Shown here piece after piece: positions 20,320 to 34,318 of a DNA stretch of 64,000 bases (the first letter of the stretch is position 1; every line of letters begins with the position of its first letter). The notes beneath the pieces were generated by a model. The model did not search any database, was not told the DNA's origin, and was given only the letters and a program-made list of their open reading frames with translations. Both the position numbers and the translations under genes were made by a program. Source of the DNA: Marispirochaeta sp. (GTDB lineage Bacteria > Spirochaetota > Spirochaetia > JC444 > Marispirochaetaceae); contig CAXXFF010000002.1 in assembly GCA_963676835.2 (NCBI GenBank), positions 1,536,001 through 1,600,000 on the forward strand. Reading direction: 5' to 3'.

Positions 20320-20370
20320 TTGACAAAGCATATCCCGTTACAAATAATTCTTAGTACGGATTCGTACTAA
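20320..20370 (+). promoter_or_regulatory. Sigma70-type promoter with downstream palindromic operator candidate
   Basis: TTGACA(20320)-17 bp-AATAAT(20343); perfect IR TTAGTACG-GATT-CGTACTAA at 20351-20370. Confidence 0.65.
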
Positions 20371-20401
20371 AAATCTATTTCTGTAGATCAGGAGGATTTG
20401 C

Positions 20402-21097
20402 ATGGACAAAGAACAAGAAAAGGTTATCGAGGAAGCTTGGAGCAAAGAGTCGATAATGGATGTAGAGATAAACATCATTGAACGGATGATTGGTTGTAGA
20501 ACCATTGAAGCCGTTGAAGCAGCAATAAGCTATGCACGCTTTCTGCGCTTGTCTGGACTGAACAATGATAATTATCCACTATTTTTACGCCTGCTTGAGG
20601 TGGAAAATCACTGGGTTATTGACTCCCTTATCGGAGACAAGGATCCCTTCCTGCTCCTCAGCTCAATTCACCCTAATAACTATGTGATTTTGAGCGCATT
20701 TAAACTGCTTACCAACTGGCACCCCGGGGGAATCTATCCGAAGACCCTGGCGATTATTCTGGGCGTTCTGCAGGCGAGCTACAGCTCTCCGAAAGACGGT
20801 TACAGGATCTACAACACCAGTATCAACGACGTTAACAACCTGGGAAAACACCTGAACAAGGAACTTGGACAGGATGATCCCAATAACCGTTGTATCCTGG
20901 ATATCCTCGACCGTCTTGGCTCTCTGGCCGGAACCACTGAGAATTCCAGTATCGAGCAGATGGCCCGTCAGTCTAACAGTATCAGAACCTTCTTCTTCGA
21001 CAAGAGGAAAAAGATGGAAGATATTATTCCTCAGGTACTGTTGGTCAAGTCTGACTACATCGCAAAAGAGATCGCCCCGGACAAGGTCTTCGCATAA
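20402..21097 (+). CDS. Uncharacterised helical protein, paralogue P1
   Basis: AGGAGG RBS; shares NYPLFL, DPF, HPGGIYPK, GY, NLGKHL, IP.VLL motifs with P2-P5. Confidence 0.85.
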   Translation: MDKEQEKVIEEAWSKESIMDVEINIIERMIGCRTIEAVEAAISYARFLRLSGLNNDNYPLFLRLLEVENHWVIDSLIGDKDPFLLLSSIHPNNYVILSAFKLLTNWHPGGIYPKTLAIILGVLQASYSSPKDGYRIYNTSINDVNNLGKHLNKELGQDDPNNRCILDILDRLGSLAGTTENSSIEQMARQSNSIRTFFFDKRKKMEDIIPQVLLVKSDYIAKEIAPDKVFA

Positions 21098-21115
21098 GGG
21101 CAAGGAGAGCTTAAT

Positions 21116-21907
21116 ATGAAAGAACTTTTCGAAAAGAAACAAACATGGACACAGACCGACATTGCAAGCATTGAATACAGCCTCTTAAAAGGACTTATGG
21201 GCTGTAGAACCATGGAAGCCGTAGAGTCAGCATTGACCTATGCAAACTATCTTAACAGCATTGGAATTACCAGCAGCAATTATCCCATATTTCTGAAGGT
21301 CCTCGGAGTGCGTAATCACTTTGTTATAGATGCCCTTCTGGGAACCCGGGATCCCTTCCTGTTTATGAGTTCCATTCAGCCCAACTACTTTATTGTGGCT
21401 ACCTGTTTCAGTTTTCTGGCGAAATATCATCCCGCAGAAATCTATTCAAAGACTCTTGGAATTATTCTGGGCGTTTTTCAGGCTGCCTTCAGCAATCCTC
21501 TGGATGGATACAACATTTATCCCCCTACAATTGCGGATGTTAACAGTCTTGGTAAGCACCTCATCGAAGAAAAAGGTCAGGATGACCTCTTAAACAGAAG
21601 TATCCTCGATATCCTGGATAAGATTTCCGAACTGGAAGGACAGGGTAAGGACGAAGAGATGGAAGATCTGGCAGTTCATGCTCATAACATCCGCAACAAC
21701 TTCTTCGATTCCACAAAACATCTTGTACAGGTTATACCCGATGTGCTGCTTAAATCCGAAGTAAACCTTGATCCCGAGGTTGAACCCCGTAAACAGCAGC
21801 CCCTCGCAGATGTGGAAAAGAGTGCTCCTAAGAAGGCGGCGGCAGCAGCGGCTCCCAAGGAAGCGGCCAAGGCAGCTCCTAAAGAAGACGAAAAGGCTGA
21901 AAAATAA
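21116..21907 (+). CDS. Uncharacterised helical protein, paralogue P2, with Ala/Lys/Pro-rich tail
   Basis: AAGGAG RBS; collinear with P1; tail APKKAAAAAAPKEAAKAAPKE. Confidence 0.85.
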   Translation: MKELFEKKQTWTQTDIASIEYSLLKGLMGCRTMEAVESALTYANYLNSIGITSSNYPIFLKVLGVRNHFVIDALLGTRDPFLFMSSIQPNYFIVATCFSFLAKYHPAEIYSKTLGIILGVFQAAFSNPLDGYNIYPPTIADVNSLGKHLIEEKGQDDLLNRSILDILDKISELEGQGKDEEMEDLAVHAHNIRNNFFDSTKHLVQVIPDVLLKSEVNLDPEVEPRKQQPLADVEKSAPKKAAAAAAPKEAAKAAPKEDEKAEK

Positions 21908-21917
21908 TCACACGTCA

Positions 21918-21954
21918 GCAGCAGGACTGGAGGCTACGCTGCCAGTCCTGTTGT
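21918..21954 (+). other. Intercistronic stem-loop without U-tract
   Basis: GCAGCAGGACTGG-N11-CCAGTCCTGTTGT between P2 and P3. Confidence 0.65.
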
Positions 21955-21971
21955 AGGTAAGGAGAGTACCA

Positions 21972-22652
21972 ATGATGCGATGGGAAGAATCTGGTTGGGA
22001 TCAGGAAGATCTTGATAAACTGGAGCTGTCCTTTCTCAACAGAATTTTCAAACTGGAAGAATCTCAGGGTGTTGCAGCTACTGTCACCTTTGCTCGGTAC
22101 TTGAATATGGTTGGAGTGAATCCGGATAATTATCCGATCTTCTTCAGGCTGATTGCCATGAGGAATCACTGGATTGTGGATGCTATTCTCGGAAAAACAG
22201 ATCCGGAAGAGTATTTTATCAATATCCAGCCAAATTTTTATATAATCCGGGAGTGTTTTCGGGGAATAACCGAAGTAAAACGCGGCGGTATCTATCCAAA
22301 GAGTCTGCAGATATACCTCGGTATTCTCAGGAGAACCTACAGTAATCCTCTTGAAGGATACCGTGTATTTCCTCTTGATACCGTTAACTGTAATAATCTG
22401 GGAAAACATCTTAATGAAGAAAAAGACCAGAAAGATCCTTTAAACCTGGATATTCTGACAATTCTTGACAAGGTTGCCTCCCTCATAAGTCCGGGTAAAC
22501 CCGAAAGCGATGAGGCGATTATCAGTGTGGCAACGCAGGCGAATAATATTCGCGGCAAATTCCTTGATATGACCAAGTCTCTCAATGAGGCTATCCCTGA
22601 TCTTTTGCTGGAAGTGGAAGATTATACGAAGCTGGAAATCAGTCCCGAATAA
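21972..22652 (+). CDS. Uncharacterised helical protein, paralogue P3
   Basis: AAGGAG RBS; NYPIFF, IQPNFY, GGIYPK, NNLGKHLNEEKDQ, NIRGKFLDMTKSL..IPDLLL. Confidence 0.85.
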   Translation: MMRWEESGWDQEDLDKLELSFLNRIFKLEESQGVAATVTFARYLNMVGVNPDNYPIFFRLIAMRNHWIVDAILGKTDPEEYFINIQPNFYIIRECFRGITEVKRGGIYPKSLQIYLGILRRTYSNPLEGYRVFPLDTVNCNNLGKHLNEEKDQKDPLNLDILTILDKVASLISPGKPESDEAIISVATQANNIRGKFLDMTKSLNEAIPDLLLEVEDYTKLEISPE

Positions 22653-22687
22653 TAACAAGACACTGCTGTACCAGCAGCACAACATTG

Positions 22688-22723
22688 AAAGCCCGGAGTG
22701 TAGTAGATGCTCCGGGTTTTTTT
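22688..22723 (+). terminator. Intrinsic terminator of the P1-P3 operon
   Basis: AAAGCCCGGAGT-loop-GCTCCGGGTTTTTTT. Confidence 0.8.
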
Positions 22724-22833
22724 ATGTCCATGTATTTTTGTTGCTGCGTCTGTTTCTTTAACTGTCGGGAGGAGAAGAGCAGCGCAGGTGTTAAATAGCA
22801 AGTTGAAATAAAGCTGAAGTTTTCGTGGGGTTC

Positions 22834-24906
22834 TTATTTTCTGAAGGGGCTGGTTACCCTGCGGATAACCTTTTTTACAAAATGTCTTAACCGGGCGAAA
22901 AAGCCCTGCTTTTCTGATATATCGGCGCTTGGCCGCGGTTGATCAACCGTCGGGGGCAATATGGAATCCTTATCTGCAAGCTCTTTTTCGGTGGTACTGC
23001 CTTGTTCAGTTATGTTTTCCGACAGATCCGGATTGGAGCCGCTGCCGGATACTGATTCAAGTCTACCCTGTCGCGTTGTTCCGGAATCTGAAGATTCCAT
23101 GCCCTTATCGGAGGCATCTGAAACACCTCCGGGAACTGTATCCAAATTCCGGTCTTCCCGCTTTTTTCCTGCCCGGTTATGCAGGTCTCCTGTAATTAAC
23201 TGATCTTCATCGGCAGTATGTTCTTCGGGATTCGTACGCTCTGTATTGATTTCGCCATTTTTATACGCGCTTCCCTCGCCTAATCCGCCTTCTCCTTCAA
23301 GGTCGAGAAACTCCCCGGTCAGATCCGGCGTTCCTTCGCCGAACAGATACTCAGCACCGGCTTCAGCTTTACGCTGGGCAAAGCCCGGGTGGCGGTAAGT
23401 CTCTCTGTCCTGCTCTCTGTATTCTTTATCAGGATTCTCTGCGGTGTTGCGCTTGGTATTTTCTTTCGGTTCTTCAGCCTTTTTGCCCGGTCTGTTTTGT
23501 GCCAGGGGTTTCGGCTGACCATTGTCTTGTGCACGTCGGTTCTTATCGATAGGCAGCATGGGAGCTGACCGCTTTTCTCTCTTCTGTTGAGTATTTTCGT
23601 TGCCCACCAGCCTGCCGGTAAGACCGCTGAAATGGTCCTGAAGCCGGCGAAGAACCTCTGCCACTCTGTTGCGGCGGGCTTCCTTATCGGTATCAGGTTC
23701 ATGGAGGCTTCCTGTTATTCCCGGAGTACTGCCTGAGTCTGCTGGTGTTTTCCCTGCAGTGTTTGGCGGAAGAGGTTCCAGTTCATCCTCCAGGGGCATA
23801 AGCAGTTCCGGTTCATCGGAGGTACTGTAGCCGGGCTTATTCTTTCTGGTTTTTCCGGGTAGCTTTTTTCCACGTATAAGCCGCTGAAATGCGGAAACTA
23901 CACGGCTGATAAAGCCTTCACGCTCCGGCGGAGGGGAGACCCCCTCGGGATAAAAGTTCCCGTCCGGTGATGGGGTATGCTGAACTCGTTCAACAGCAGG
24001 GCGGAGAAGGGGTACCGGCGTCTCCGGCGGTGTAAAGTCCTCTTCGCTGGAGATTGTTTCTCCACTGCGTATCCGTTTAAGAATATCAGAGAAGTCCCGT
24101 GCTTCCAGCCTTGCCTTGGCATGCTCATTAAGGTGGTCAATCAGCTCCTTCTCCGGGTGGATTTTTACTATGGTGTTAAGTGCTTCCTCTATGGATGCCA
24201 CTGATTTCGGATTCCTGGCTGTTTTTTGGGCTATTTCAAGAATAGTTGCCTTCTGTTCAGGATCGCCGTCACTTTCCGGTACCAGCTGGAGGAGTTCCAG
24301 GGTAATTACGGATACCGCATAGAGATCCCGCCAGGGCCCTTCAGGGTATTTTTCCGCAGAAAGATAATAGGGTTTTATTTTCTGCACATACCGGCCTTCC
24401 GGAAAAGCATCCACAAAGAGGGATACCCCGATGTTGCGCAGTTTTATACGTCCATATTCAATGTTCGCGTCGGGAACAACTATTGCCCGGGGAGAGAGAC
24501 TGTTGTGATGAATCCCCGCCTGTTCGAGGCTATAGAGTCCTCTCAGCAGAAAAATAATAATATTCATTACCTGGTCAAAGCTGACAATCAGTCCCTTATC
24601 CATCACCTGCCGCAGGGAGTATCCTTCTATCCAGTTAGAAGCCATAAACCGGGTATTTTCGTAGCTGCTGTATTCAAAAGGGGCAAGAATATAGGAGTTG
24701 TCAAAGTTATAAATACGGAAAAACAGATCCTCAAAACTCTGTAGAACCTTTGCCGGTGGGTCATTCTTGAGAAAGTTAAAAAATGAGATGGAAAAATTAT
24801 TGGGAGAATACATGGCCTTAGCCCGCCATGTAGAGAAAATTTCATTCTCTCCCAGATTTTCCTGCAGCAGATAACAGTTATTAATCGGTTTTCCAATAAA
24901 TTCCAT
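22834..24906 (-). CDS. Hanks-type pseudokinase with long disordered C-terminus and amphipathic helices
   Basis: Kinase-order motifs LGENEIFSTWRA, HNSLSPRAIVV, IKLRNIG, YLSAE, RDLYAVSVITLELL with catalytic residues replaced; start reset to ATG 24906. Confidence 0.75.
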   Translation of the reverse strand: MEFIGKPINNCYLLQENLGENEIFSTWRAKAMYSPNNFSISFFNFLKNDPPAKVLQSFEDLFFRIYNFDNSYILAPFEYSSYENTRFMASNWIEGYSLRQVMDKGLIVSFDQVMNIIIFLLRGLYSLEQAGIHHNSLSPRAIVVPDANIEYGRIKLRNIGVSLFVDAFPEGRYVQKIKPYYLSAEKYPEGPWRDLYAVSVITLELLQLVPESDGDPEQKATILEIAQKTARNPKSVASIEEALNTIVKIHPEKELIDHLNEHAKARLEARDFSDILKRIRSGETISSEEDFTPPETPVPLLRPAVERVQHTPSPDGNFYPEGVSPPPEREGFISRVVSAFQRLIRGKKLPGKTRKNKPGYSTSDEPELLMPLEDELEPLPPNTAGKTPADSGSTPGITGSLHEPDTDKEARRNRVAEVLRRLQDHFSGLTGRLVGNENTQQKREKRSAPMLPIDKNRRAQDNGQPKPLAQNRPGKKAEEPKENTKRNTAENPDKEYREQDRETYRHPGFAQRKAEAGAEYLFGEGTPDLTGEFLDLEGEGGLGEGSAYKNGEINTERTNPEEHTADEDQLITGDLHNRAGKKREDRNLDTVPGGVSDASDKGMESSDSGTTRQGRLESVSGSGSNPDLSENITEQGSTTEKELADKDSILPPTVDQPRPSADISEKQGFFARLRHFVKKVIRRVTSPFRK

Positions 24907-24919
24907 AGTATCCGCTGCT

Positions 24920-25849
24920 TCAGGTTTTCTTTTTATAATAGTCCAGGAAAGACTGACCCATGCCGGAATATCTGTCGTCAACTTCCTGCTGCTTTGCAGT
25001 ATCCCGCGGGGTAAACCACTTGCGAAAATACTCCACCAGGTATTCCATGCGGTACATCACATTGGCGGTAATTTTTTCCGCCACTTTTTTTTCATCATCA
25101 AATATGCTGCAGGAAAATACCTGAAGACAGATATCGTATATTTTCTCCCGGGATATGCTGGACATAAGGGTGAGTCTCTGGTCGAAGTCTTCGATGGAGA
25201 GGGCATTGAAATTGTCCGGTTTCAGCAGGGTCAGGAATCTGGTTTTCTCTTCACGGTGCCAGCCGAACTTGTCTTCCAGACCGAATATCTTCATGCCCTC
25301 TGTTTCAAGGTCTGCTTTGTTGTAATCTATTACCACGATAAAGGGTTCGCCGTCGGTATCGTGTTTGATCAGATAATTGTTGGGGTTGCGGTCCTCATCA
25401 AAGAAAAGCCAGCGGTTAAGCAGATCATTGGCCAGCATCTTAATGTAGGGCTCCTGAAGGTAGTTATAGCTTCCAATCTGCATGGCGCTTGGAATCTGTT
25501 TCGTGGCACGGTAGAGGGTCTCTCCGTGACGATAGACAACAGTTGGAGCAGCGGGAGTCTTCAGAAGAAAATCAATATAAAAGGCTATTTCCTGTATTTT
25601 ATGTTCCGGCCCTTCTGCTGCTGATATTTCCTTGAGCAGCCAGGAGGCGCCGTCATCATCCAGTGCGCCGGTATATCCCCGTACCTTTGCAAAGAAGGGA
25701 ACCAGTTCATCATCACCGATATCGGAAAGCTGAAGACTGCACATACTGGTAATAAGCTCTTCAATGGAAAGATCCAGATAGAGGGTCTCCCTGAAACCGG
25801 GATCCTTAACTGTGTCGGCAATCAGCATGTTGGTGTTTTTCTCAGACAT
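24920..25849 (-). CDS. HipA/PI3-4-kinase-like atypical kinase
   Basis: FFAK, QEIAF, catalytic-loop-like DEDRNPNNYLI and VVIDYN. Confidence 0.7.
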   Translation of the reverse strand: MSEKNTNMLIADTVKDPGFRETLYLDLSIEELITSMCSLQLSDIGDDELVPFFAKVRGYTGALDDDGASWLLKEISAAEGPEHKIQEIAFYIDFLLKTPAAPTVVYRHGETLYRATKQIPSAMQIGSYNYLQEPYIKMLANDLLNRWLFFDEDRNPNNYLIKHDTDGEPFIVVIDYNKADLETEGMKIFGLEDKFGWHREEKTRFLTLLKPDNFNALSIEDFDQRLTLMSSISREKIYDICLQVFSCSIFDDEKKVAEKITANVMYRMEYLVEYFRKWFTPRDTAKQQEVDDRYSGMGQSFLDYYKKKT

Positions 25850-26744
25850 AGTACTTCTCCGTCTTGGCTGTTACTGCATATTTCTCGCTAATGTTTCCGT
25901 TTTCAATCAGCAGGTATGGTCCCCGGGTCTGAAGATTGGTGTAGATAATTATGTGATTCTTTATGCCGATAATATCCCGCCAGATACCGGTAAGGTTGCC
26001 GGTATTCCACATGGGGTTGTGTCCCACAATAAAAGGTGTATCTTCGGGGAGATCCAGCTTGCTCAGCATCTTCCTGATATCATGCTCACCGTACTCTTTC
26101 AGATTCGGATTCCCCCGGAATTCATGGAGACGGTTCCACATAAGCTGACGATAGTAGTCTTCGTTGTCCTTGATATTAACCAGTTCATGGCGTGAACAGC
26201 CGTTCCTGATTGGCCCTGCATGGGTTATTGCATAGCCGTTACCGATTATAAACATGGGCAGGGCTTCAAAAAATTCCGAAACTGCCTCGACATATTCATC
26301 TCCCCTGTGCTCCTCCAGGTGAAGACGAAACTCAAGGCCCTGTTTTATGGCACTTTTTGCCAGCCGTTCTTCGAAGGTGTCATGATTCCCGCGGATATAG
26401 ATTAGGTTGTGTTTGTACTGCAGGATCAGGTTGAAAACCTCTTCAAGTACCTGCAGGGACGACGCCATCTCCCGCATTTCACCGGTCTGGTCATTATGAA
26501 CACCGTCGCCGATTATGATTATCCGTAATTTACCTGCATCAAGTTGTTTGCGGTTATCTTCATGCTCAATAATAGCTTTCAGGTTATCCAGTGCACCATG
26601 GAGGTCTCCGATTACTATAACCGGCCGTTTATCCTTTGAAAAATCGAGGAGTCCCCCCGGTCGGCCCTGGTCATCTTTGGCTCTGTCCGGGTTGCTCTCG
26701 ACAATTTTTATCACTTTGCGAATCTCAACGGGGCTGATACTCAT
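25842..26744 (-). CDS. Calcineurin-like (PPP-type) metallophosphoesterase
   Basis: GDLHG, GDGVHND, RGNHD, THAG, VGHNP; AGGAG RBS. Confidence 0.88.
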   Translation of the reverse strand: MSISPVEIRKVIKIVESNPDRAKDDQGRPGGLLDFSKDKRPVIVIGDLHGALDNLKAIIEHEDNRKQLDAGKLRIIIIGDGVHNDQTGEMREMASSLQVLEEVFNLILQYKHNLIYIRGNHDTFEERLAKSAIKQGLEFRLHLEEHRGDEYVEAVSEFFEALPMFIIGNGYAITHAGPIRNGCSRHELVNIKDNEDYYRQLMWNRLHEFRGNPNLKEYGEHDIRKMLSKLDLPEDTPFIVGHNPMWNTGNLTGIWRDIIGIKNHIIIYTNLQTRGPYLLIENGNISEKYAVTAKTEKYYV

Positions 26745-26759
26745 GGTTAATCTCCTGGA

Positions 26760-27470
26760 TTAATTATTAGAGATTTTTCCGGCGAAATCAAAAAAATCTT
26801 CCGCCGGCCGTACCTCCCTGGATTCACGGTTCAATCTTACCAGGAGAACTTCTGGAATAGTGTCTTTCAGTGACTTTGTGTTATCGAAGAATGCATCCCG
26901 CATATTGAAGGCCAGACGGGAAATACCCGCTTTATGAGGTGTGTAATCCATCTGGCCCAGCTTTGTCATCCTGTCGAAAATCTCAAGTATAAGCGAGTTG
27001 GTTGCATCTAACTGATCTTTATCTTCATCCAGGAATTTTCCTATATTCTGCAGGTCTGCTACTTCAATCGGGTAGATGTCATAGCCTGTATCCGGTTTGT
27101 GGTAGGTATATTCAACGGTGCCGAGAACCGCCAGCAGTACTTTTTCATAGATCTGTCCCGGATGCCAGGATGAGATGAGCTCCAGGGCATGGCGGATAAG
27201 GTATGCATTCGGGCGTATGGATGAAAACAGGAGCCTAGGGTCCCGGTCTTCAAGCAGTTCATCGACAACCCATTTGTTGTTGGTCTCAATAATTTTTAAA
27301 AAGAGTAGATAGTTCCTTGATGTTATTCCCACATGGCCAAGATATTTGGCGAATGCCATGCTGGAACCCACCTGTATGGGAGAGGATACACCAAAGATTC
27401 CTTCCAGTATGATCTGTCGATTCTGCATGATAATTTCGTCGAAATCAAACGACAGGTAATCACCGCCCAT
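26760..27470 (-). CDS. Uncharacterised helical protein, paralogue P4
   Basis: AKYLGHVGITSRNYLLFL, DPRLLFSSIRPN, WHPGQIYEK, NIGKFL, FFDNTKSLKDTIPEVLL. Confidence 0.85.
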   Translation of the reverse strand: MGGDYLSFDFDEIIMQNRQIILEGIFGVSSPIQVGSSMAFAKYLGHVGITSRNYLLFLKIIETNNKWVVDELLEDRDPRLLFSSIRPNAYLIRHALELISSWHPGQIYEKVLLAVLGTVEYTYHKPDTGYDIYPIEVADLQNIGKFLDEDKDQLDATNSLILEIFDRMTKLGQMDYTPHKAGISRLAFNMRDAFFDNTKSLKDTIPEVLLVRLNRESREVRPAEDFFDFAGKISNN

Positions 27471-27604
27471 TAATATCCCCAAAAAATCCTTCTGTTCCCT
27501 ATCATATCCAAATAGGAGTATATAAAATAAGTATCATGGATATCATTCCTGATAGCAAGATATGGAATTCACTATTTTTCCGGGCTTTCCGGTAAGGTAT
27601 ATCA

Positions 27605-29440
27605 GTGAATAACAGCCCTTCCTGGGAGCAGCAGCTCGAAGACATCTACCAGTTTGCCCGGCTTCACCACTGGGTAAGCCAGCTGAATGAGCTGATTGAG
27701 CAGTTTGTCGGTGAGTTCTCACAAAATTATAATGAAATCTCCCGCAAGATACATGCCAGTCATCTGTCAGGGCAGCAGAACCCGGCGGACAGTCTTGTTT
27801 CTCTTGTTTTGCTGCATAAATTTCAGACACCGGTCCTCGAAATTACCGAGAAGCTGTTTCATCTGCTTTATGGAAAGCTTGACAGTAAGGATCAGCAGTT
27901 TCTTATTCTCCATTTTTTCAAAGGAATGCTCCCTCTTTCCACTGATGACAGTCATGAGATAATAATCCGCTCATTTATCTCCTATAAAAGGGCAATATTT
28001 CGTGGAATGCAGATTGAAAATCTTGTTTCCAACGTGAATCCCGCAGAAACAGCTCTGTTTTTTACGGTGCTGATCTGCAGAGTAGATGTCCACACCCAGA
28101 ACCGTGCTTTAATAAACCTGCTTCTCTACAGAATTGAGGCGAGGCTCCCGGAAAATGTCCTTCAGGGGGTATTGGTGTACCTCAAGAAGCTCAGACAGGT
28201 TATATACGAGGTCTATACCCGGGGAGAGAAGGTTCTCTCCGATGAGTTGAATATTTCCGAAGAGCCTGATCTGCTTCAGATCGAAGATGATGCCCTCATG
28301 GATACCGCCGGTGTGTATGAGGCGGAAGAAGAGCCCCCTCATGATCTGTCTTTACCGGAAAAAGCGGCTGGATCGACGGCATCCGGTAAATCCGGCAGTT
28401 CAAGTCTTGAGCCTTCGAATGATGATTCAGGTGGACGGACTGCCGGGGAGAAGCCCGGAGGCATGGATAACCCCCGGGAAACAAGTGTCAGATCGCCGGA
28501 AAGTGACATGGCTGCTGATCGTGGGCGGGGAGAACCCACGAGGGGGCAGGAACATGTCCGCCAGGGGGAAGGCTTTGCGGCGGCTGCTTTTGCACAGGAT
28601 ACGACAAACCTGCAGACCCATGGGTCTGCGGATAATACGGGTTCTTCGGGAGATTTTGATGGATTAACCGCATCCGTAAATGGTCCAGCCTCCGGAGCAC
28701 TGGACGGAGCGGTTCTCCAGGAACCGGAAACCGGTGACAACAATATATTTCAGGTGGCGTTTAACCGGAGCATCGAAAAGCTCCTTGATCTTCTCGGGGA
28801 TGCTGGAGAGCTTCCAGTCGGGGAAGAGGCCCTTCTTAACGATGAAACAGACATGAAGTCAGAGGGTGGAACCGGGGAAAGTAACATGGAAAAGCCCCAT
28901 GCCCACAGAGCTGAGCAGAAGGGGGCTCCTGCAGCTTCGGGTCCTGCACGGTCAGGACAGAAAAAGCGTTTCGGCATTGGAATCCTTATTTCCCTGGGCG
29001 CTATCGTACTGCTGTCTGTTGTTCTTTTTGTTGCCCTCGGACAAGGGCACAGTTCCGAGCCTGTCGCGGCCGCTCCGGCGCCGGCGGTAACTGCCCCTGC
29101 TGCAGAGCCGAAACCTGTTCTTCCGGAGATTGTCAGTGAACTGCGGCAGTTGCCTGATGAGCAGACTTCATCTGTAGCATCGGAAGGTATCGGGGGAAAC
29201 AGTATCAATCCCGATATCAAGGTGGAAGATGGTAACTTTCTCTGGCGTGTGCAGGAGGGGGAGTCGGTCTGGAAGATGTATATCTTTGCCAGAGGGGGCT
29301 CTGGAATCTTTAAACTGTCCGTCGATGTAAGCTGGGGAGATTTTCTTGAAATGTTCAGAAATCTTAATCCCATGCTGCGCAATCCGGATGTAATTTATCC
29401 CGACAATCTGCTGCGGCTCCCTGGAAACGATGCTATATAA
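27605..29440 (+). CDS. Single-pass membrane protein with C-terminal LysM-like domain
   Basis: Helical N-domain, acidic low-complexity linker, TM FGIGILISLGAIVLLSVVLFVALG, PA linker, WRVQEGESVW...NPMLRNPDVIYPDNLLRLP. Confidence 0.75.
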   Translation: MNNSPSWEQQLEDIYQFARLHHWVSQLNELIEQFVGEFSQNYNEISRKIHASHLSGQQNPADSLVSLVLLHKFQTPVLEITEKLFHLLYGKLDSKDQQFLILHFFKGMLPLSTDDSHEIIIRSFISYKRAIFRGMQIENLVSNVNPAETALFFTVLICRVDVHTQNRALINLLLYRIEARLPENVLQGVLVYLKKLRQVIYEVYTRGEKVLSDELNISEEPDLLQIEDDALMDTAGVYEAEEEPPHDLSLPEKAAGSTASGKSGSSSLEPSNDDSGGRTAGEKPGGMDNPRETSVRSPESDMAADRGRGEPTRGQEHVRQGEGFAAAAFAQDTTNLQTHGSADNTGSSGDFDGLTASVNGPASGALDGAVLQEPETGDNNIFQVAFNRSIEKLLDLLGDAGELPVGEEALLNDETDMKSEGGTGESNMEKPHAHRAEQKGAPAASGPARSGQKKRFGIGILISLGAIVLLSVVLFVALGQGHSSEPVAAAPAPAVTAPAAEPKPVLPEIVSELRQLPDEQTSSVASEGIGGNSINPDIKVEDGNFLWRVQEGESVWKMYIFARGGSGIFKLSVDVSWGDFLEMFRNLNPMLRNPDVIYPDNLLRLPGNDAI

Positions 29441-30002
29441 GCAGTCCGTGAGGAATAACCGACTCCAGTCCTTTGGTGGTATCCAGGGCGGCATCCCTGA
29501 TTTTCGCCGCAACCAGAGAAACTCCGCCATATTCACGTGAGGGAAGGGCTGTAACAGCTTCCATTATCCCGGTGATAAACCGCTCCGCCGTCTCATCCTG
29601 CAAAAGCAGATATTTTGCTGTGTGGTAAAGCTCCTGGGCTGTCAGGGGATGTATTTTCATGCCGTTTGCAGGATGTGTGTAAACAGATGCCAGAGTACCG
29701 GTACAGGCATAAACAACCCTCCGGTCTGTTTCTCCGGCTCTCCGGCTGCTGAGCAGATCAAGAATCGATGCCACCAGCCTTCTGTCAGGTGTTACAGGCG
29801 AAAAGAGTGACTCCGGTGTTCTTTTTTTAAAAACAGCATCCAGAACTTCTTTATCGTTCAGGGACAATACCTTGAGGTACATGTGCAGGGTTTCAGCATT
29901 TACGGGCAGATTGGACAGGTATGCTGCAAAGCCTCTGGCGCCTTCTATGGCTGCCTGTGTTCCCGATTCAAGCATCTGATTAAGCAGGTCCGACTGATTC
30001 AT
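29433..30002 (-). CDS. Diverged paralogue P5 of the uncharacterised family
   Basis: FAAYLSNL..N...YLKVL, TPESLFS, HPANGMKIHP, KIRDAALDTTKGLESVIPHGLL; AAGGAG RBS before ATG 30002. Confidence 0.75.
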   Translation of the reverse strand: MNQSDLLNQMLESGTQAAIEGARGFAAYLSNLPVNAETLHMYLKVLSLNDKEVLDAVFKKRTPESLFSPVTPDRRLVASILDLLSSRRAGETDRRVVYACTGTLASVYTHPANGMKIHPLTAQELYHTAKYLLLQDETAERFITGIMEAVTALPSREYGGVSLVAAKIRDAALDTTKGLESVIPHGLLI

Positions 30003-30190
30003 ATATGCTCCTTCCGGCCCAATCATAGTCTATCCCCGGAGATATTGCAAAAAAACTCTAATTCATACTATTCCGGATCTGTAAAGAAAAAAGTTTAAAA
30101 AAACGAAGAAAGTACTTGATAATTTTTTATCGATAAATTATTATCGTATTATCAATTCTGATTAGGGATTTATTCCCGGGAGCGAGAGCG

Positions 30191-30604
30191 ATGAATAAAT
30201 TATCGTATCTGGTTATTACAGTAGTTTTAGTTCTGGCGGCTGCAGGATGCAGCACCCGGCCCTTTACACCTGGCAGTTACATTGGAACAGCACCGGGTAT
30301 GCTCGGCAATGATGTTGTTGTCGATGTTTTGGTAGATGCGTGGAGTATCAAATCCATCAAGATTATTCGATATAACGAGCCCTTGAAGGCATCGAGTGTA
30401 GCTTTTGAGAGTATTCCGAAAGCAATTATTGAGGGACAGAGCCTTGATGTAGCTCCGGTTCCTGGTGCACTTGGATCAAGCAGGGCAATTATCAATGCAG
30501 TAGCAAATGCACTGCATAGCGCAAGTTCTGATTATGGACTTGCAGGTTCAGAAAGGTTTTTTCCGGCAGCTTCTGCCGATGGGACAGTGGCTGTTCTGGA
30601 ATAA
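30191..30604 (+). CDS. FMN_bind-domain lipoprotein (atypical)
   Basis: Lipobox AAAGC; FTPGSYIGTAPG...IPKAIIEGQSLDV..VPGALGSSRAIINAV. Confidence 0.78.
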   Translation: MNKLSYLVITVVLVLAAAGCSTRPFTPGSYIGTAPGMLGNDVVVDVLVDAWSIKSIKIIRYNEPLKASSVAFESIPKAIIEGQSLDVAPVPGALGSSRAIINAVANALHSASSDYGLAGSERFFPAASADGTVAVLE

Positions 30605-30623
30605 CAGGCCGTGTAGAATATCA

Positions 30624-30662
30624 GGCCCGGAGATGCGTTGCATTTCCGGGCCCTCTTTTTTT
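30624..30662 (+). terminator. Intrinsic terminator
   Basis: GGCCCGGAGATGC-GTT-GCATTTCCGGGCC followed by T-run. Confidence 0.8.
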
Positions 30663-30697
30663 TGTTTTCTTTGTTTTTTCAGTTTAACTTTACTTTC

Positions 30698-31231
30698 TCA
30701 GACATCAGCCATAATATCTTTATTCATTCCAACAAAGGTTTCCACCATAATTGTTGTTGCCTCATCAATCAGCTCGGACTGCTCTTCGGCAGAGAGGCTT
30801 TCGGGGCAGGCGACAATGGTGAACACAGGTGATGTTTTGCTGATTGGACTTTTACTGAAGCTGAGACATTTGTCCGTTTCAGCATTCTCGGCCATTACGC
30901 AGCCTTCCCGGGTAATGGACGCAGGAACATCATTACGGAAACCGATACTGGTGTAATCAATCTTACGCTTCCCATCCACAAGGGGGCCGATGGATACAAG
31001 TGATCCTGAATAGGTCAGAGCCAGGGCTCCGCGCTCGTCGTCAGCGGCAAAGCTTCCGACTTCATCCATACCCATCTCGATCATTGATTCATCAAAGGCC
31101 TCTTTTTTCTCGATCCATCCGGCACCCAGCCGTGCAATGGTATCCTCGTCCGCTTCCAGGCCGAAAGACTCGGCAACTTCGTTAAGGTGTTTGTTGATAA
31201 TTTCAGGCAGTTCAGTCATGGTAACGTCCAT
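30698..31231 (-). CDS. Acidic hypothetical protein
   Basis: GGAGG RBS before ATG 31231; 177 aa; ALALTYSGSLVSIGP. Confidence 0.75.
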   Translation of the reverse strand: MDVTMTELPEIINKHLNEVAESFGLEADEDTIARLGAGWIEKKEAFDESMIEMGMDEVGSFAADDERGALALTYSGSLVSIGPLVDGKRKIDYTSIGFRNDVPASITREGCVMAENAETDKCLSFSKSPISKTSPVFTIVACPESLSAEEQSELIDEATTIMVETFVGMNKDIMADV

Positions 31232-31344
31232 GGTATCCTCCGTTATTTCTTGAAATAAGTTACCTAATAGATATATCCTTTGATCCGTTTGCGGTATGTG
31301 CCGTTTGGTATGTTTTTTCAGATAAGCGGTGGTATAAAATAAGT

Positions 31345-31920
31345 ATGTCAGTTTCAAGCAGCAGATCCGGTTCCCGCTGGTTCCTGAAAGGACGCCTTGC
31401 CGACGGGTCTCCCTGGACAATTCCCATCCGGGATCCCCGTTTTCTCATAGGACGCTCTGCGGAATGCAGTCTGATCCTCGATTCCATGGAAGTTTCCCGG
31501 CGTCATGCCTCGATCAACACGGCAGAAGGCAGTCTATATATCAACGATCTCGGCAGTCAGAATGGAACTTTCCTGAATGGTGCAGCCCTTGATTCCACCC
31601 GTCCGCTGGAAAACCGGGATATTCTGAAAATAGGCAATCATGAGTTTATGGTATGCGAAACTGAGAAAAAACGGGTGGAAGCGGTTCAAACCATTGTTGA
31701 GGAAGCGTGCAGTAACAGCTTTGCCGCACGGTTCGGCCTGTCTGCCCGGGAAGAAGAGATTCTATACCTGCTTATTCATGGCGACTCAATGCAGGAGATT
31801 GCACGGAAGCTTTATATTTCTCCGGGGACAGCCAAGAATCATGTCCTGAAGATCTATAAAAAGACAGACTGTCATTCAAAGATAGAAATTGCAAATGCCT
31901 ACCGGGAATATACGGGATAG
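31345..31920 (+). CDS. FHA domain plus LuxR-type HTH transcriptional regulator
   Basis: IGRS, VSRRHA, DLGSQNGTFLNG; LSAREEEIL...IARKLYISPGTAKNHV. Confidence 0.9.
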   Translation: MSVSSSRSGSRWFLKGRLADGSPWTIPIRDPRFLIGRSAECSLILDSMEVSRRHASINTAEGSLYINDLGSQNGTFLNGAALDSTRPLENRDILKIGNHEFMVCETEKKRVEAVQTIVEEACSNSFAARFGLSAREEEILYLLIHGDSMQEIARKLYISPGTAKNHVLKIYKKTDCHSKIEIANAYREYTG

Positions 31921-31930
31921 TCTCCGGGAT

Positions 31931-34051
31931 TTATTCGTTGCCGCAGTGGTCAAACTCCATGCCGGTAAGCTCGCTTATGGTATGCATACTGGTCTGAGAA
32001 ATCTCCGCAATATGGCCCAGTCTCTGGTTGAGATCATCCACAGCGCTGTTTATGGAAACGGCAGACTCGTCAACTATACTATTCAGCTCTCTGAGCTCGT
32101 AAATTGCTTCTACTGTCTGCCTGCTTCCGGCGGACATCTCATTCAACTGTCCTATCATCTCATGGAGAGCTCCGGTGAGTTCCATGAAGCCGTTAATCAT
32201 AGTCCCGTATATATGCTCTGAATTCTCCGTACTTTCCACGGTATGACGAACTTCACTGGTTATTTTTGAAAGTGCATCTTCCACGTTCTGGGTGCTTTCT
32301 CCGGCAGCTTCCGCAAGTTTCTTTATCTCTTCGGCGACCACACTGAATCCTTTTCCAGCTTCGCCGGCGTGGGCTGCTTCAATTGAGGCGTTCATTGAGA
32401 GGATATTGGTTCTTGAGGCAACGTTCTCAATCATCTCCATCATTTCACCAATCTGGGTAATATGATTTTCGGTCTGGGTAATTGCCTGTATGGTCTCTTT
32501 GATCTCTTCTTCACTGGTCTTGGCCATATTGGCCATTTCTGAAATCGATGCATCCCGTTCTGAAGAGATTCTTGAGATATTCTGAATCCCGGCGGTCATC
32601 TCTTCTATGGCAGAGGAGAATTCAACCAGCGCGGCGGTCTGATTGTGTACACTGTTCACCACTCTGCCTGTGGCCTGCTGGACCTGCTGAATAATATGAT
32701 TCAGGTTGGTGATCATGCAGTAGATGGTCTCATACTCTTTTGTAACAGCAGCCACTGCCTTCTCACGGTAATCGTGACAGTTTCCAGGCTTATTCAGGCC
32801 GTTGAAAATGGCTTCTGCCATAGCCTCGCAGCTGTTGTATCCACAGGAGGCACACTGCAGATAATCCTCTTCCTTTGTTTTTTTCATTTCCTTGTAGACT
32901 GCATCAAGCTGTTTGCTGTCCGGAATCTTGTAATTCTTCAAGAGGGCTGATTTATCCTGATAGCCCCGGTGGTAGAGTTCTTTATACCAGTACTTGTCCA
33001 GTACCTTGTTGACCAGCTTTTTCCGCTTCTTTTCAGATATATTCCTGGTAGAATAATCTGCCTTGGCTTCCTTCATGCGCTTTTCAATGTAATATTCAAC
33101 TTCATCAATCGCCTTTTCCTGATTCAGGGTTCCCGGGCCGCCGTTACAGCCCATTTCGCAGTTCAGACAGTCGATGAGCAGAGGGTTCATTCCCTTTTTA
33201 AGCAGGTCCGGTAATTTTTTCATATATTCATAGACAATATCCGGCCCCTCTATACGGCGGATACGGCTCATAATTTCCGGTGTTTCGCGCTCCACGGTAC
33301 GCATCAGTCCTCCCGGGCTTGAGAAGAGTACCGCTCGCTCGGCCGGAGGATTGATAAAGTCCTCTTCCGGATATTTTGCCAGGTTAATATTGTTGGTTTC
33401 GATATATTTTGCGAAGGACTTATAGGTAACATTAAAGTCGCCAATGCCGGTGTCGGCGAATTCCCTCTTTTTTGCCAGGCAGGGGGAGAGGGCAAGAATT
33501 TTCATATGACTGTATTCGGGGTAATACTCCCGGATCATCTTCATTATATGCAGCATGGGGCTGTCTGCAGGTGCCAGGTAGGGAATAAGTTCCGGCTGGA
33601 AGGTTTCAATATAAGAGACGATTGCAGGACAGGGCTGGGCGATCACCATTTCCGGCTGCGTATCGTTGATGTAATTAACATAGGACTTTACGGTCAGCTC
33701 TGCGCCGAAACTTACGTCGAAGATTGCCTTGACGCCCAGGGACTTAACCCAGCCGAAAAAGTTCTTATACTGCCCGGGAAAATTGGCGGCCACTGCGGGA
33801 GCTGCTATGGCAAGAACCTCTTCCCCCTTTTTCAGGGACTCCATCATCAGGTCAAAGTCGTCGCAGATATTGCGGGCGTCGTGCTGGCAGGCGGTTATGC
33901 ATTTTCCGCAGCCGATGCAGAGATCGTGGTTTATTTCCACATGGTTACCGCTGCCGTTCATACAGGATTTTACCGGGCATGCGGATATGCACATATGGCA
34001 GTTAACGCATTTATCTGGATCAACACTGATAACCTGGGGCACCGTAAACAT
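31931..34051 (-). CDS. Soluble chemoreceptor: ferredoxin, [FeFe]-hydrogenase H-cluster-like domain, FeS domain, MCP signalling domain (group C2-type sensory hydrogenase)
   Basis: Two CxxCxxCxxxC motifs; AQPCPA, SPCLAKKRE, DCLNCEMGCNGG; CASCGYNSC; NASIEAAHAGEAGKGFSVVAEEIKKLA; no TM. Confidence 0.88.
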   Translation of the reverse strand: MFTVPQVISVDPDKCVNCHMCISACPVKSCMNGSGNHVEINHDLCIGCGKCITACQHDARNICDDFDLMMESLKKGEEVLAIAAPAVAANFPGQYKNFFGWVKSLGVKAIFDVSFGAELTVKSYVNYINDTQPEMVIAQPCPAIVSYIETFQPELIPYLAPADSPMLHIMKMIREYYPEYSHMKILALSPCLAKKREFADTGIGDFNVTYKSFAKYIETNNINLAKYPEEDFINPPAERAVLFSSPGGLMRTVERETPEIMSRIRRIEGPDIVYEYMKKLPDLLKKGMNPLLIDCLNCEMGCNGGPGTLNQEKAIDEVEYYIEKRMKEAKADYSTRNISEKKRKKLVNKVLDKYWYKELYHRGYQDKSALLKNYKIPDSKQLDAVYKEMKKTKEEDYLQCASCGYNSCEAMAEAIFNGLNKPGNCHDYREKAVAAVTKEYETIYCMITNLNHIIQQVQQATGRVVNSVHNQTAALVEFSSAIEEMTAGIQNISRISSERDASISEMANMAKTSEEEIKETIQAITQTENHITQIGEMMEMIENVASRTNILSMNASIEAAHAGEAGKGFSVVAEEIKKLAEAAGESTQNVEDALSKITSEVRHTVESTENSEHIYGTMINGFMELTGALHEMIGQLNEMSAGSRQTVEAIYELRELNSIVDESAVSINSAVDDLNQRLGHIAEISQTSMHTISELTGMEFDHCGNE

Positions 34052-34318
34052 AGCAAATCTCCTATTCAAATCAAGCGTAGTAAAATGCCTCTGGGTTTGC
34101 AAATCCCGGGGAACTTTTGCTGCTGAAAATCAGTGTTTGGTAATGCTTACATATATGGTAAACTAAAGGTGTATGAAAACCGTGATACGCCGGAGGCTCT
34201 GGTGGATCTGTTGGAAGACCTGCCGCTCTGAATTATCTGTATTATCCTACCATTCAATCCCCGTATCTCTTGAAATTTTTGAAACCGGGTAAGCCCGGGA
34301 AAAGGTGGTTAAAAGCAT

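Follow-up and report, generated by a model that had tools for sequence, protein, structure and literature searches.

We analysed a gene cluster in a 64,000-nucleotide stretch of Marispirochaeta sp. DNA (assembly GCA_963676835.2, contig CAXXFF010000002.1, positions 1,536,001 to 1,600,000, forward strand), hereafter the window. Five members of one protein family, P1 to P5, are encoded there together with a kinase, a phosphatase, a pseudokinase and an envelope anchor. A near-consensus sigma-70 promoter-like site (20320..20348, +; 11/12) precedes P1 (20402..21097, +), the presumed core subunit, a 231-residue protein predicted to form an alpha-solenoid. The same strand carries P2 (21116..21907), the putative core partner of P1, which ends in a variable low-complexity tail, and P3 (21972..22652), a third paralogue that forms its own orthologous group in the tree. 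On the minus strand lie the genes for the pseudokinase (22834..24906), in which a PknB/StkP-like domain is followed by an acidic low-complexity linker and a C-terminal basic amphipathic helix, for an atypical kinase with a predicted PI4K-II/CtkA/Fam20/HipA fold and an intact catalytic loop (24920..25849), for a PPP-type metallophosphoesterase (25842..26744) and for P4 (26760..27470), which in related loci usually stands 5′ of the phosphatase and kinase genes. The anchor (27605..29440, +) consists of a conserved helical N-terminal domain (residues ~1-215), an acidic linker, one transmembrane (TM) segment and a divergent LysM domain; P5 (29433..30026, −) is a divergent short paralogue without both terminal segments and probably an accessory one. 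An earlier note on this DNA had described these genes, and a check of the open reading frames bore out all its positions and strands; the starts of the pseudokinase (most likely ATG 24906) and of P4 (ATG 27470) were corrected by orthologue alignment. Its domain calls hold in Pfam (Metallophos E 4e-12, FHA 7e-19, GerE 1e-11). No structured RNA was matched in Rfam.

The five P proteins are indeed homologous. P2, P3, P4 and P5 are 46, 41, 36 and 23% identical to P1 over ~215 aligned residues with 21 invariant columns, and a search of the genome found no further copies. The predicted structure of P1, made from a 128-sequence alignment, contains 11 helices and no strands (predicted local distance difference test score, pLDDT, 95.8). 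None of P1-P5 has a significant match in Pfam or NCBIfam, and the family has none in PADLOC, PHROGs, the PDB sequences or the Atlas, bearing in mind that absence from fold lists does not mean absence of a distant relative. Foldseek returned zero matches to the P1 model at E 0.001, and a wider structural search recovered generic solenoids only, the best being the armadillo domain of MEILB2 (Z 8.5, root-mean-square deviation (rmsd) 5.3, 170 residues aligned, identity 11%), a value within the helical-repeat background and below the trusted level. P1 thus resembles armadillo/HEAT scaffolds such as MEILB2 and CNOT9 in being an all-helical solenoid, but shares no sequence match with them and scores at the solenoid background.

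A profile search of 1.84 billion representatives gave 214 P-family matches at E 0.001; no viral copy was found. In a quick tree of 132 rows, dereplicated at 80% and with 11 duplicate loci dropped, P1, P3 and P4 form separate old groups, P2-like proteins fall into three neighbouring clades and P5 sits on a long branch, with 24 short library representatives nearest to it. About 50 columns are invariant within the P1 orthologues and likewise within those of P2, many of them polar; K149 and D200 are kept in at least 90% of 128 P sequences, and no position of the alignment is invariant over all paralogues. The search for informative fusions among proteins of 406-2000 residues (8000 scored candidates) yielded just two P-P tandem products, which is weak evidence. 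The idea that the P2 tail is a histone-like basic tail was rejected, its median net charge being 0.5 and the tail not being conserved.

Conservation of the neighbourhood was examined in 75 loci containing P1, to which the linkage counts below refer unless stated otherwise. P1 is 64-99% identical across them. P2 is found in 72 loci, P3 in 67, the kinase in 59, the phosphatase in 58, P4 in 56, the pseudokinase in 49, the anchor in 18 and P5 in 3. When only the 41 loci of at least 15 kb are considered, 39 hold both kinase and phosphatase. Gene order and orientation vary from locus to locus (convergent, co-directional or permuted), and in free-living spirochaetes the genes stay one conserved unit through these rearrangements, in agreement with the earlier note, which had read them as a system. 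In a class-level sample of 401 genomes, P occurs in 51, the kinase in 46 and both in 45, while the kinase is present in only 1 of the 350 P-negative genomes; these co-occurrence figures, like those given below, are descriptive, as the carriers are kin and not independent. Of the six genomes with P only, three are of the pair type (see below), two are fragmented assemblies, and in one P1 and P2 share a fused frame. The module is spread patchily, being found in 13 genomes of a separate phylum-wide draw, also of 401. Twelve loci carry a small protein with a C-terminal zinc ribbon. At one locus (L017, 10001-11329) an in-frame 442-residue P1-P2 fusion lies beside a LysM anchor; it was set aside as support, since the locus is without P3, P4, kinase, phosphatase and pseudokinase and may be a deletion remnant (or hold an adaptive fusion).

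The kinase gene had been called HipA/PI3-4K-like, and the fold supports this call. The kinase has no Pfam match, and none of 30 members checked matches HipA in Pfam. The predicted structure matches PI4K-II enzymes best, PI4K-IIa among them (Z 15.8, rmsd 4.0, 232 residues aligned), followed by CtkA (14.7), Fam20 (13.8), MavQ (12.9), HipA (12.4), CotH (12.3) and actin-fragmin kinase (12.1). The DEDRNPNNY loop and a downstream Asp are invariant in 30/30 members, and the ATP-binding Lys is present in at least 90%. On the basis of the modelled fold and of the catalytic Asp, Asn, metal-binding Asp and Lys, the gene is assigned to the PI3K/PI4K/HipA-like atypical kinase superfamily. A solo kinase copy (L177, 8391-9242, −), catalytically altered or degenerate, was observed in the one kinase-positive genome without P. 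In the phosphatase, the metal ligands are invariant in 29/29 members, and the top PDB matches are BSU1 and PP5 (E 3e-7). The pseudokinase is, as claimed, of the Hanks type by sequence (PknB/StkP-like, profile E 8e-37) with its catalytic motifs gone: the catalytic Lys, the HRD Asp and the DFG are all lost. Its C-terminal basic amphipathic helix has the highest hydrophobic moment of the protein (0.77), and a basic amphipathic C-terminus is found in 12 of 14 minus-strand orthologues, two being without it; in Treponemataceae-like loci the C-terminal region is different. PknB/StkP-PstP operons likewise combine a Hanks-type kinase domain and a phosphatase with a peptidoglycan-binding anchor nearby. 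However, the Hanks domain of the module is dead and without TM segment, the live kinase belongs to another family, LysM is on a separate protein, and PstP-type phosphatases are PP2C enzymes whereas that of the module is PPP-type.

The envelope tether proposed in the earlier note is backed by two predicted membrane attachments, namely the amphipathic helix of the pseudokinase and the TM-LysM protein. The latter has one predicted TM segment near residue 460 and an acidic linker with a net charge of −29. Its LysM domain is divergent: in the window protein it stays below the Pfam cut-off (E 0.44, 11 bits against 20.9), whereas a match to Pfam LysM is seen in three of the 18 members of the family (best E 1e-7) and the family profile matches the LysM of SafA at E 1e-4. 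The N-terminal domain has no usable match in the Atlas or the PDB, and a profile comparison (probability 0.1%) rejected it as a sixth P paralogue. Among the 63 genomes used for the anchor and for FHA-LuxR (49 of the 51 P-positive ones plus 14 P-negative ones), this N-terminal domain is present in 35/49 P-positive and 0/14 P-negative genomes. In many of the loci that have no anchor (at least 12), a TM protein occurs whose GGDEF domain is degenerate.

A complex of P1 and P2 was modelled using paired alignments of 39 rows. The model scored 0.71, versus 0.00 for the best of three controls; of 157 solved complexes, 116 attain this mark, as do 2 of 215 mismatched pairs, rates which are only rough with these alignments. 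The modelled interface is quasi-symmetric: residues 13-63 make it up together with the tails, and the conserved RTxEAVEAAxxYA helix falls within it, as do the candidate phosphorylation sites P1 S43 and P2 T41. Both terminal segments are missing from P5. The prediction supports binding of P1 to P2, and to this extent the hetero-oligomer that had been proposed for the paralogues gains ground as a dimer, be it a hetero- or a homodimer.

Several features suggest that P1 and P2 are made in quantity. A promoter-like site with at least 10 of 12 consensus positions lies upstream of P1 in 44/69 regions (42/67 after two truncated slices are dropped), compared with 2/70 for P2, 1/66 for P3, 1/57 for the kinase and 6/58 for the phosphatase, control regions that are partly coding. 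Among 3273 genes of the genome, codon bias places P1 at the 90th percentile, P2 at the 94th and P3 at the 79th, while P4 (31st), P5 (24th) and the phosphatase (34th) rank low. Furthermore, five loci (L048, L049, L052, L056 and L075) contain two copies, 98.9-100% identical, of a 2.2-2.4-kb block in which P1-P2 and a further paralogue lie; between the genomes of the first four, these blocks are 70-86% identical and identically arranged. This pattern suggests that a single duplication of old date has stayed uniform through gene conversion, as happens with tufA/tufB. Alternatively, it may reflect independent recent duplications, or an assembly error in two contig-level cases. Three contigs of 2.1-2.6 kb (L024, L031 and L060) contain little beyond P1-P2-P3 and are about as long as the duplicated block; they are possibly collapsed repeats, in which case the duplication would be commoner than five genomes. 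Promoter, codon bias and duplication together lead us to infer that the P1-P2 dimer is probably produced constitutively and abundantly.

The earlier note had tied the paralogues to the kinase, phosphatase and LysM genes and would have counted homologues without these genes against its proposal; in part, this is what was observed. In other spirochaetes and in other phyla the P1/P2 pair also stands bare, as was found in all 80 metagenome loci retrieved with a pair-type query and in three genomes. These genomes are 94-97% complete and hold two P genes only, kinase and phosphatase not being found; in the metagenome set two P genes are present in 74 loci and kinase or phosphatase in 0/80. In the tree, the leading gene of the pair falls together with P1 (support 98), and the P1 orthologues of such loci are 58-67% identical. 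Their sources are named as Acidobacteriota, Vicinamibacteria, Desulfobacteraceae, Rhodothermales and Rectinemataceae, plus one Bathyarchaeota bin that we distrust, since it is a 3-kb contig. A small hairpin gene accompanies the pair in 58/80 loci, and in 24/26 of those of at least 8 kb; neither the 75 kinase-type loci nor the genome of the window has it. As the P1/P2 pair also occurs without them, the kinase, the phosphatase and LysM are additions made in spirochaetes to a P1-P2 core of wider occurrence.

Neighbours of the pair were clustered over 83 loci: the 80 from the metagenomes, one own-genome locus and two genome loci, each a duplicate of one of the 80. Two contexts emerged. The first contains ParA (11 loci), a receiver-HATPase_c_2 gene (22), STAS (19) and, judged by eye from its motif, a SpoIIE-like gene (14); the HATPase_c_2 gene is seen in pair-type context only. 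After ParA comes a small partner whose N-terminus is basic and whose hairpin is homologous to the small gene that neighbours the P pair. This arrangement is reminiscent of McdA-McdB, a ParA/MinD cargo-positioning pair; it does not occur in the genome of the window, which has no hairpin gene. Two further genes without Pfam match are conserved in the ParA/STAS context: one of ~360 residues directly 3′ of the pair (26 loci; L086 9481-10566) and one of ~330-400 residues (19 loci; L086 13434-14423). The second context comprises a protein with a receiver and a long coiled coil, which in 27 loci lies to one or the other side of the pair and on either strand, and in which the phospho-Asp appears by eye to have been replaced; no conserved kinase is among the top neighbour clusters. 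Its architecture, and only that, likens it to FrzS of Myxococcus, a polar beacon of the receiver/coiled-coil type (PMC9811614; PMC1974792), in the abstracts of which the P family is not mentioned. The version in the window has no such protein.

Taken together, these data lead us to favour, tentatively and as something short of probable, an explanation in which P1 and P2 form an abundant scaffold that is held at the envelope, switched by kinase and phosphatase, and used for spatial organisation. According to the model, P1 and P2 would join into a pseudo-two-fold heterodimer via their first three helices and C-terminal tails. The dimer might then build a larger assembly taking in P3 and the scarcer P4 and P5. 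The TM-LysM protein and the amphipathic helix of the pseudokinase, given their predicted topology, could hold this assembly at the inner membrane and cell wall, while the atypical kinase and the PPP phosphatase, whose folds and motifs are recognisable, would switch the assembly or its partners by reversible phosphorylation. Its job may be that of a polar or envelope landmark or of a cytoskeleton-like scaffold. A role in spatial organisation is proposed because every gene context of the pair, three in all, brings a positioning device of its own: the LysM anchor, the ParA ATPase with its small partner, and the receiver/coiled-coil protein of FrzS-like architecture. A bolder version, which strikes us as rather doubtful, sees P1-P2 as the heterodimeric unit of a hitherto undescribed bacterial alpha-solenoid polymer (cytoskeletal filament, lattice or organelle-like body) common to Spirochaetota, Acidobacteriota and Desulfobacterota, with LysM, ParA and receiver/coiled-coil proteins as interchangeable positioning devices; in spirochaetes, which would have expanded it to four or five subunit types, a PI4K/Fam20-type kinase and the PPP phosphatase would control assembly.

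A number of observations weigh against the scaffold explanation. Three runs of the P1:P2 model gave 0.71, 0.01 and 0.86 (contact agreement at least 0%, partner pLDDT at least 79), so that one of them failed; paralogues may pass as close cousins in such models, so hetero- and homodimers are not told apart; and a two-fold dimer, the largest model obtained, does not polymerise by itself. The codon bias of P1 and P2 lies under that of most ribosomal proteins (94-100th percentile in 24/25 by leave-one-out). As for the switch, the pair exists without this kinase, the best structural matches of the kinase are lipid kinases (PI4K-II), so that a protein substrate is no more than putative, and the phosphatase keeps the first and third of the PPP motifs (GDxHG, GDxVDRG and GNHE) while its second reads GDxxH without the Arg. 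A candidate phosphosite, P1 S217, tracks the kinase (22/22 kinase-linked versus 0/17 other proteins) but was rejected: the correlation is confounded, as equally strict differences run in the opposite direction, and may reflect ancestry. Finally, the anchor is missing from 14/49 P-positive genomes, the ParA linkage is drawn from related genomes with long shared synteny, and the module is dispensable, because of the five other genus members three lack it and two carry it.

A different use of the same parts would be a stressosome-like hub, in which a P particle sequesters and releases the kinase or a regulator and envelope stress sensed through LysM is the input. We consider this unlikely, although part of the likeness claimed in the earlier note stands: several paralogous scaffold subunits are encoded with a kinase and a phosphatase, and one pair context lies among the receiver-HATPase_c_2, STAS and SpoIIE-like phosphatase genes mentioned above. 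The likeness is one of organisation and ends with the core and the type of kinase. RsbT is a GHKL-type (HATPase) kinase; the kinase of the module has the PI4K/HipA fold, and the module moreover has a PPP-type phosphatase and membrane tethers. In the stressosome, paralogous scaffold subunits are described with a Ser/Thr kinase and phosphatase (PMC9237128; PMC11821858), and the core consists of RsbR and RsbS, which carry a STAS domain (PMC9237128), whereas the core of the module is an alpha-solenoid (P1 has no beta strand, and P proteins have neither a STAS match nor a sensor domain). The stressosome is a megadalton pseudo-icosahedral particle; for the P proteins a dimer was modelled. A conserved transcriptional output is lacking, FHA-LuxR being unlinked, and in the receiver/coiled-coil context the top neighbour clusters include no conserved kinase.

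The lipid-kinase matches raise the question of the substrate. Kinase and phosphatase might act on a membrane lipid or small metabolite (e.g., an inositol-type head group), the P solenoids reading the phosphorylated product at the membrane. This appears improbable to us. PI4K-II heads the matches and the lipid kinase MavQ is among them, the phosphatase departs from PPP, K149 and D200 are conserved polar residues and the cluster has membrane tethers; on the other hand, the protein kinases CtkA, Fam20 and HipA score nearly as high, the best sequence matches of the phosphatase are protein phosphatases, and P pairs persist without the kinase.

Even less credible is an anti-phage or toxin-antitoxin function, with a toxic HipA-like kinase sensed or restrained by the P proteins. 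The HipA-like fold and the patchy, all-or-none spread (2/5 other genus members) are compatible with it, and the pseudokinase matches PADLOC kinase models, a generic kinase similarity (best E 6e-10). However, P1-P5, the kinase and the anchor have no PADLOC match, and the phosphatase has one weak match to a methyltransferase model. Defence genes evolve fast, unlike P1, which is highly conserved, has homogenised duplicates and stands behind a promoter of the constitutive type; the top conserved neighbour clusters include neither defence nor mobile genes, the GC content is not anomalous and no viral copy exists in the searches made. HipBA is not matched either, as the kinase lacks the HipA Pfam domain and adjoins the phosphatase and the pseudokinase or P1, with no helix-turn-helix antitoxin adjoining. 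Least of all do we expect P1-P2 to be an enzyme or ligand carrier of two subunits and novel fold that the neighbours only regulate: the extreme conservation, with its many polar invariant columns in each orthologous group, would suit such a role, but P1 is an armadillo-like solenoid without cofactor motif, no position is invariant in all paralogues and the three contexts have no metabolic neighbour in common.

The module belongs to none of the known systems compared (stressosome, HipBA, the anti-phage systems of PADLOC 2023), in line with the earlier note, which had recognised no named system. No description of it was found in the literature searched, which included few subscription journals and no supplements, a possible site of neighbourhood tables. 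It is rare for a family to keep 58-90% identity over distant lineages and show signs of abundance while being unannotated. Should it prove to be a scaffold or polymer switched by phosphorylation, it would represent a new class of bacterial structural element, and an orphan kinase from the PI4K/Fam20/HipA branch would gain a defined role. The module is testable, as the cultured Sediminispirochaeta smaragdinae DSM 11293 carries a P1 orthologue of 86% identity, annotated as uncharacterised, and a laboratory host can serve to express the minimal version of two genes.

The FHA-LuxR gene, which lies 1.3 kb past P5 (31345..31920, +) with two unrelated genes between them, had been proposed as the phosphate reader of the system. 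This claim fails. The gene belongs to the cluster in 0/75 loci, adjoins it only in this genome and one close relative, and occurs in 8/49 P-positive versus 3/14 P-negative genomes; 8 of these 11 carriers place it instead beside the gene found here at 30698-31231 (−). The latter encodes 177 residues and forms with FHA-LuxR a divergent pair of their own. Its family is present in 40/63 genomes tested, usually as 2-3 paralogues, and further paralogues of the same genome sit in a separate kinase-phosphatase locus (L176 3940-10709; G000:C1 ~165900-172700). This second phospho-signalling locus contains genes that by eye are vWA-FHA-like and TM-FHA-like, a Hanks kinase that looks intact and a phosphatase with distant likeness to PPP. 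The two paralogues of the 177-residue family also lie there, and one of them carries an HU-type DNA-binding domain as a fusion (Pfam E 7e-13).

Two other neighbours deserve mention. A small gene for a lipoprotein-like protein with a flavin mononucleotide (FMN)-binding domain (30191-30652, +) is followed by a strong 13-bp terminator hairpin and adjoins the cluster in 1/75 loci. Beyond FHA-LuxR, the gene at 31931-34102 (−) encodes 4Fe-4S and FeFe-hydrogenase-like domains fused to a methyl-accepting chemotaxis protein (MCP) signalling domain, probably a soluble hydrogen or redox chemoreceptor.

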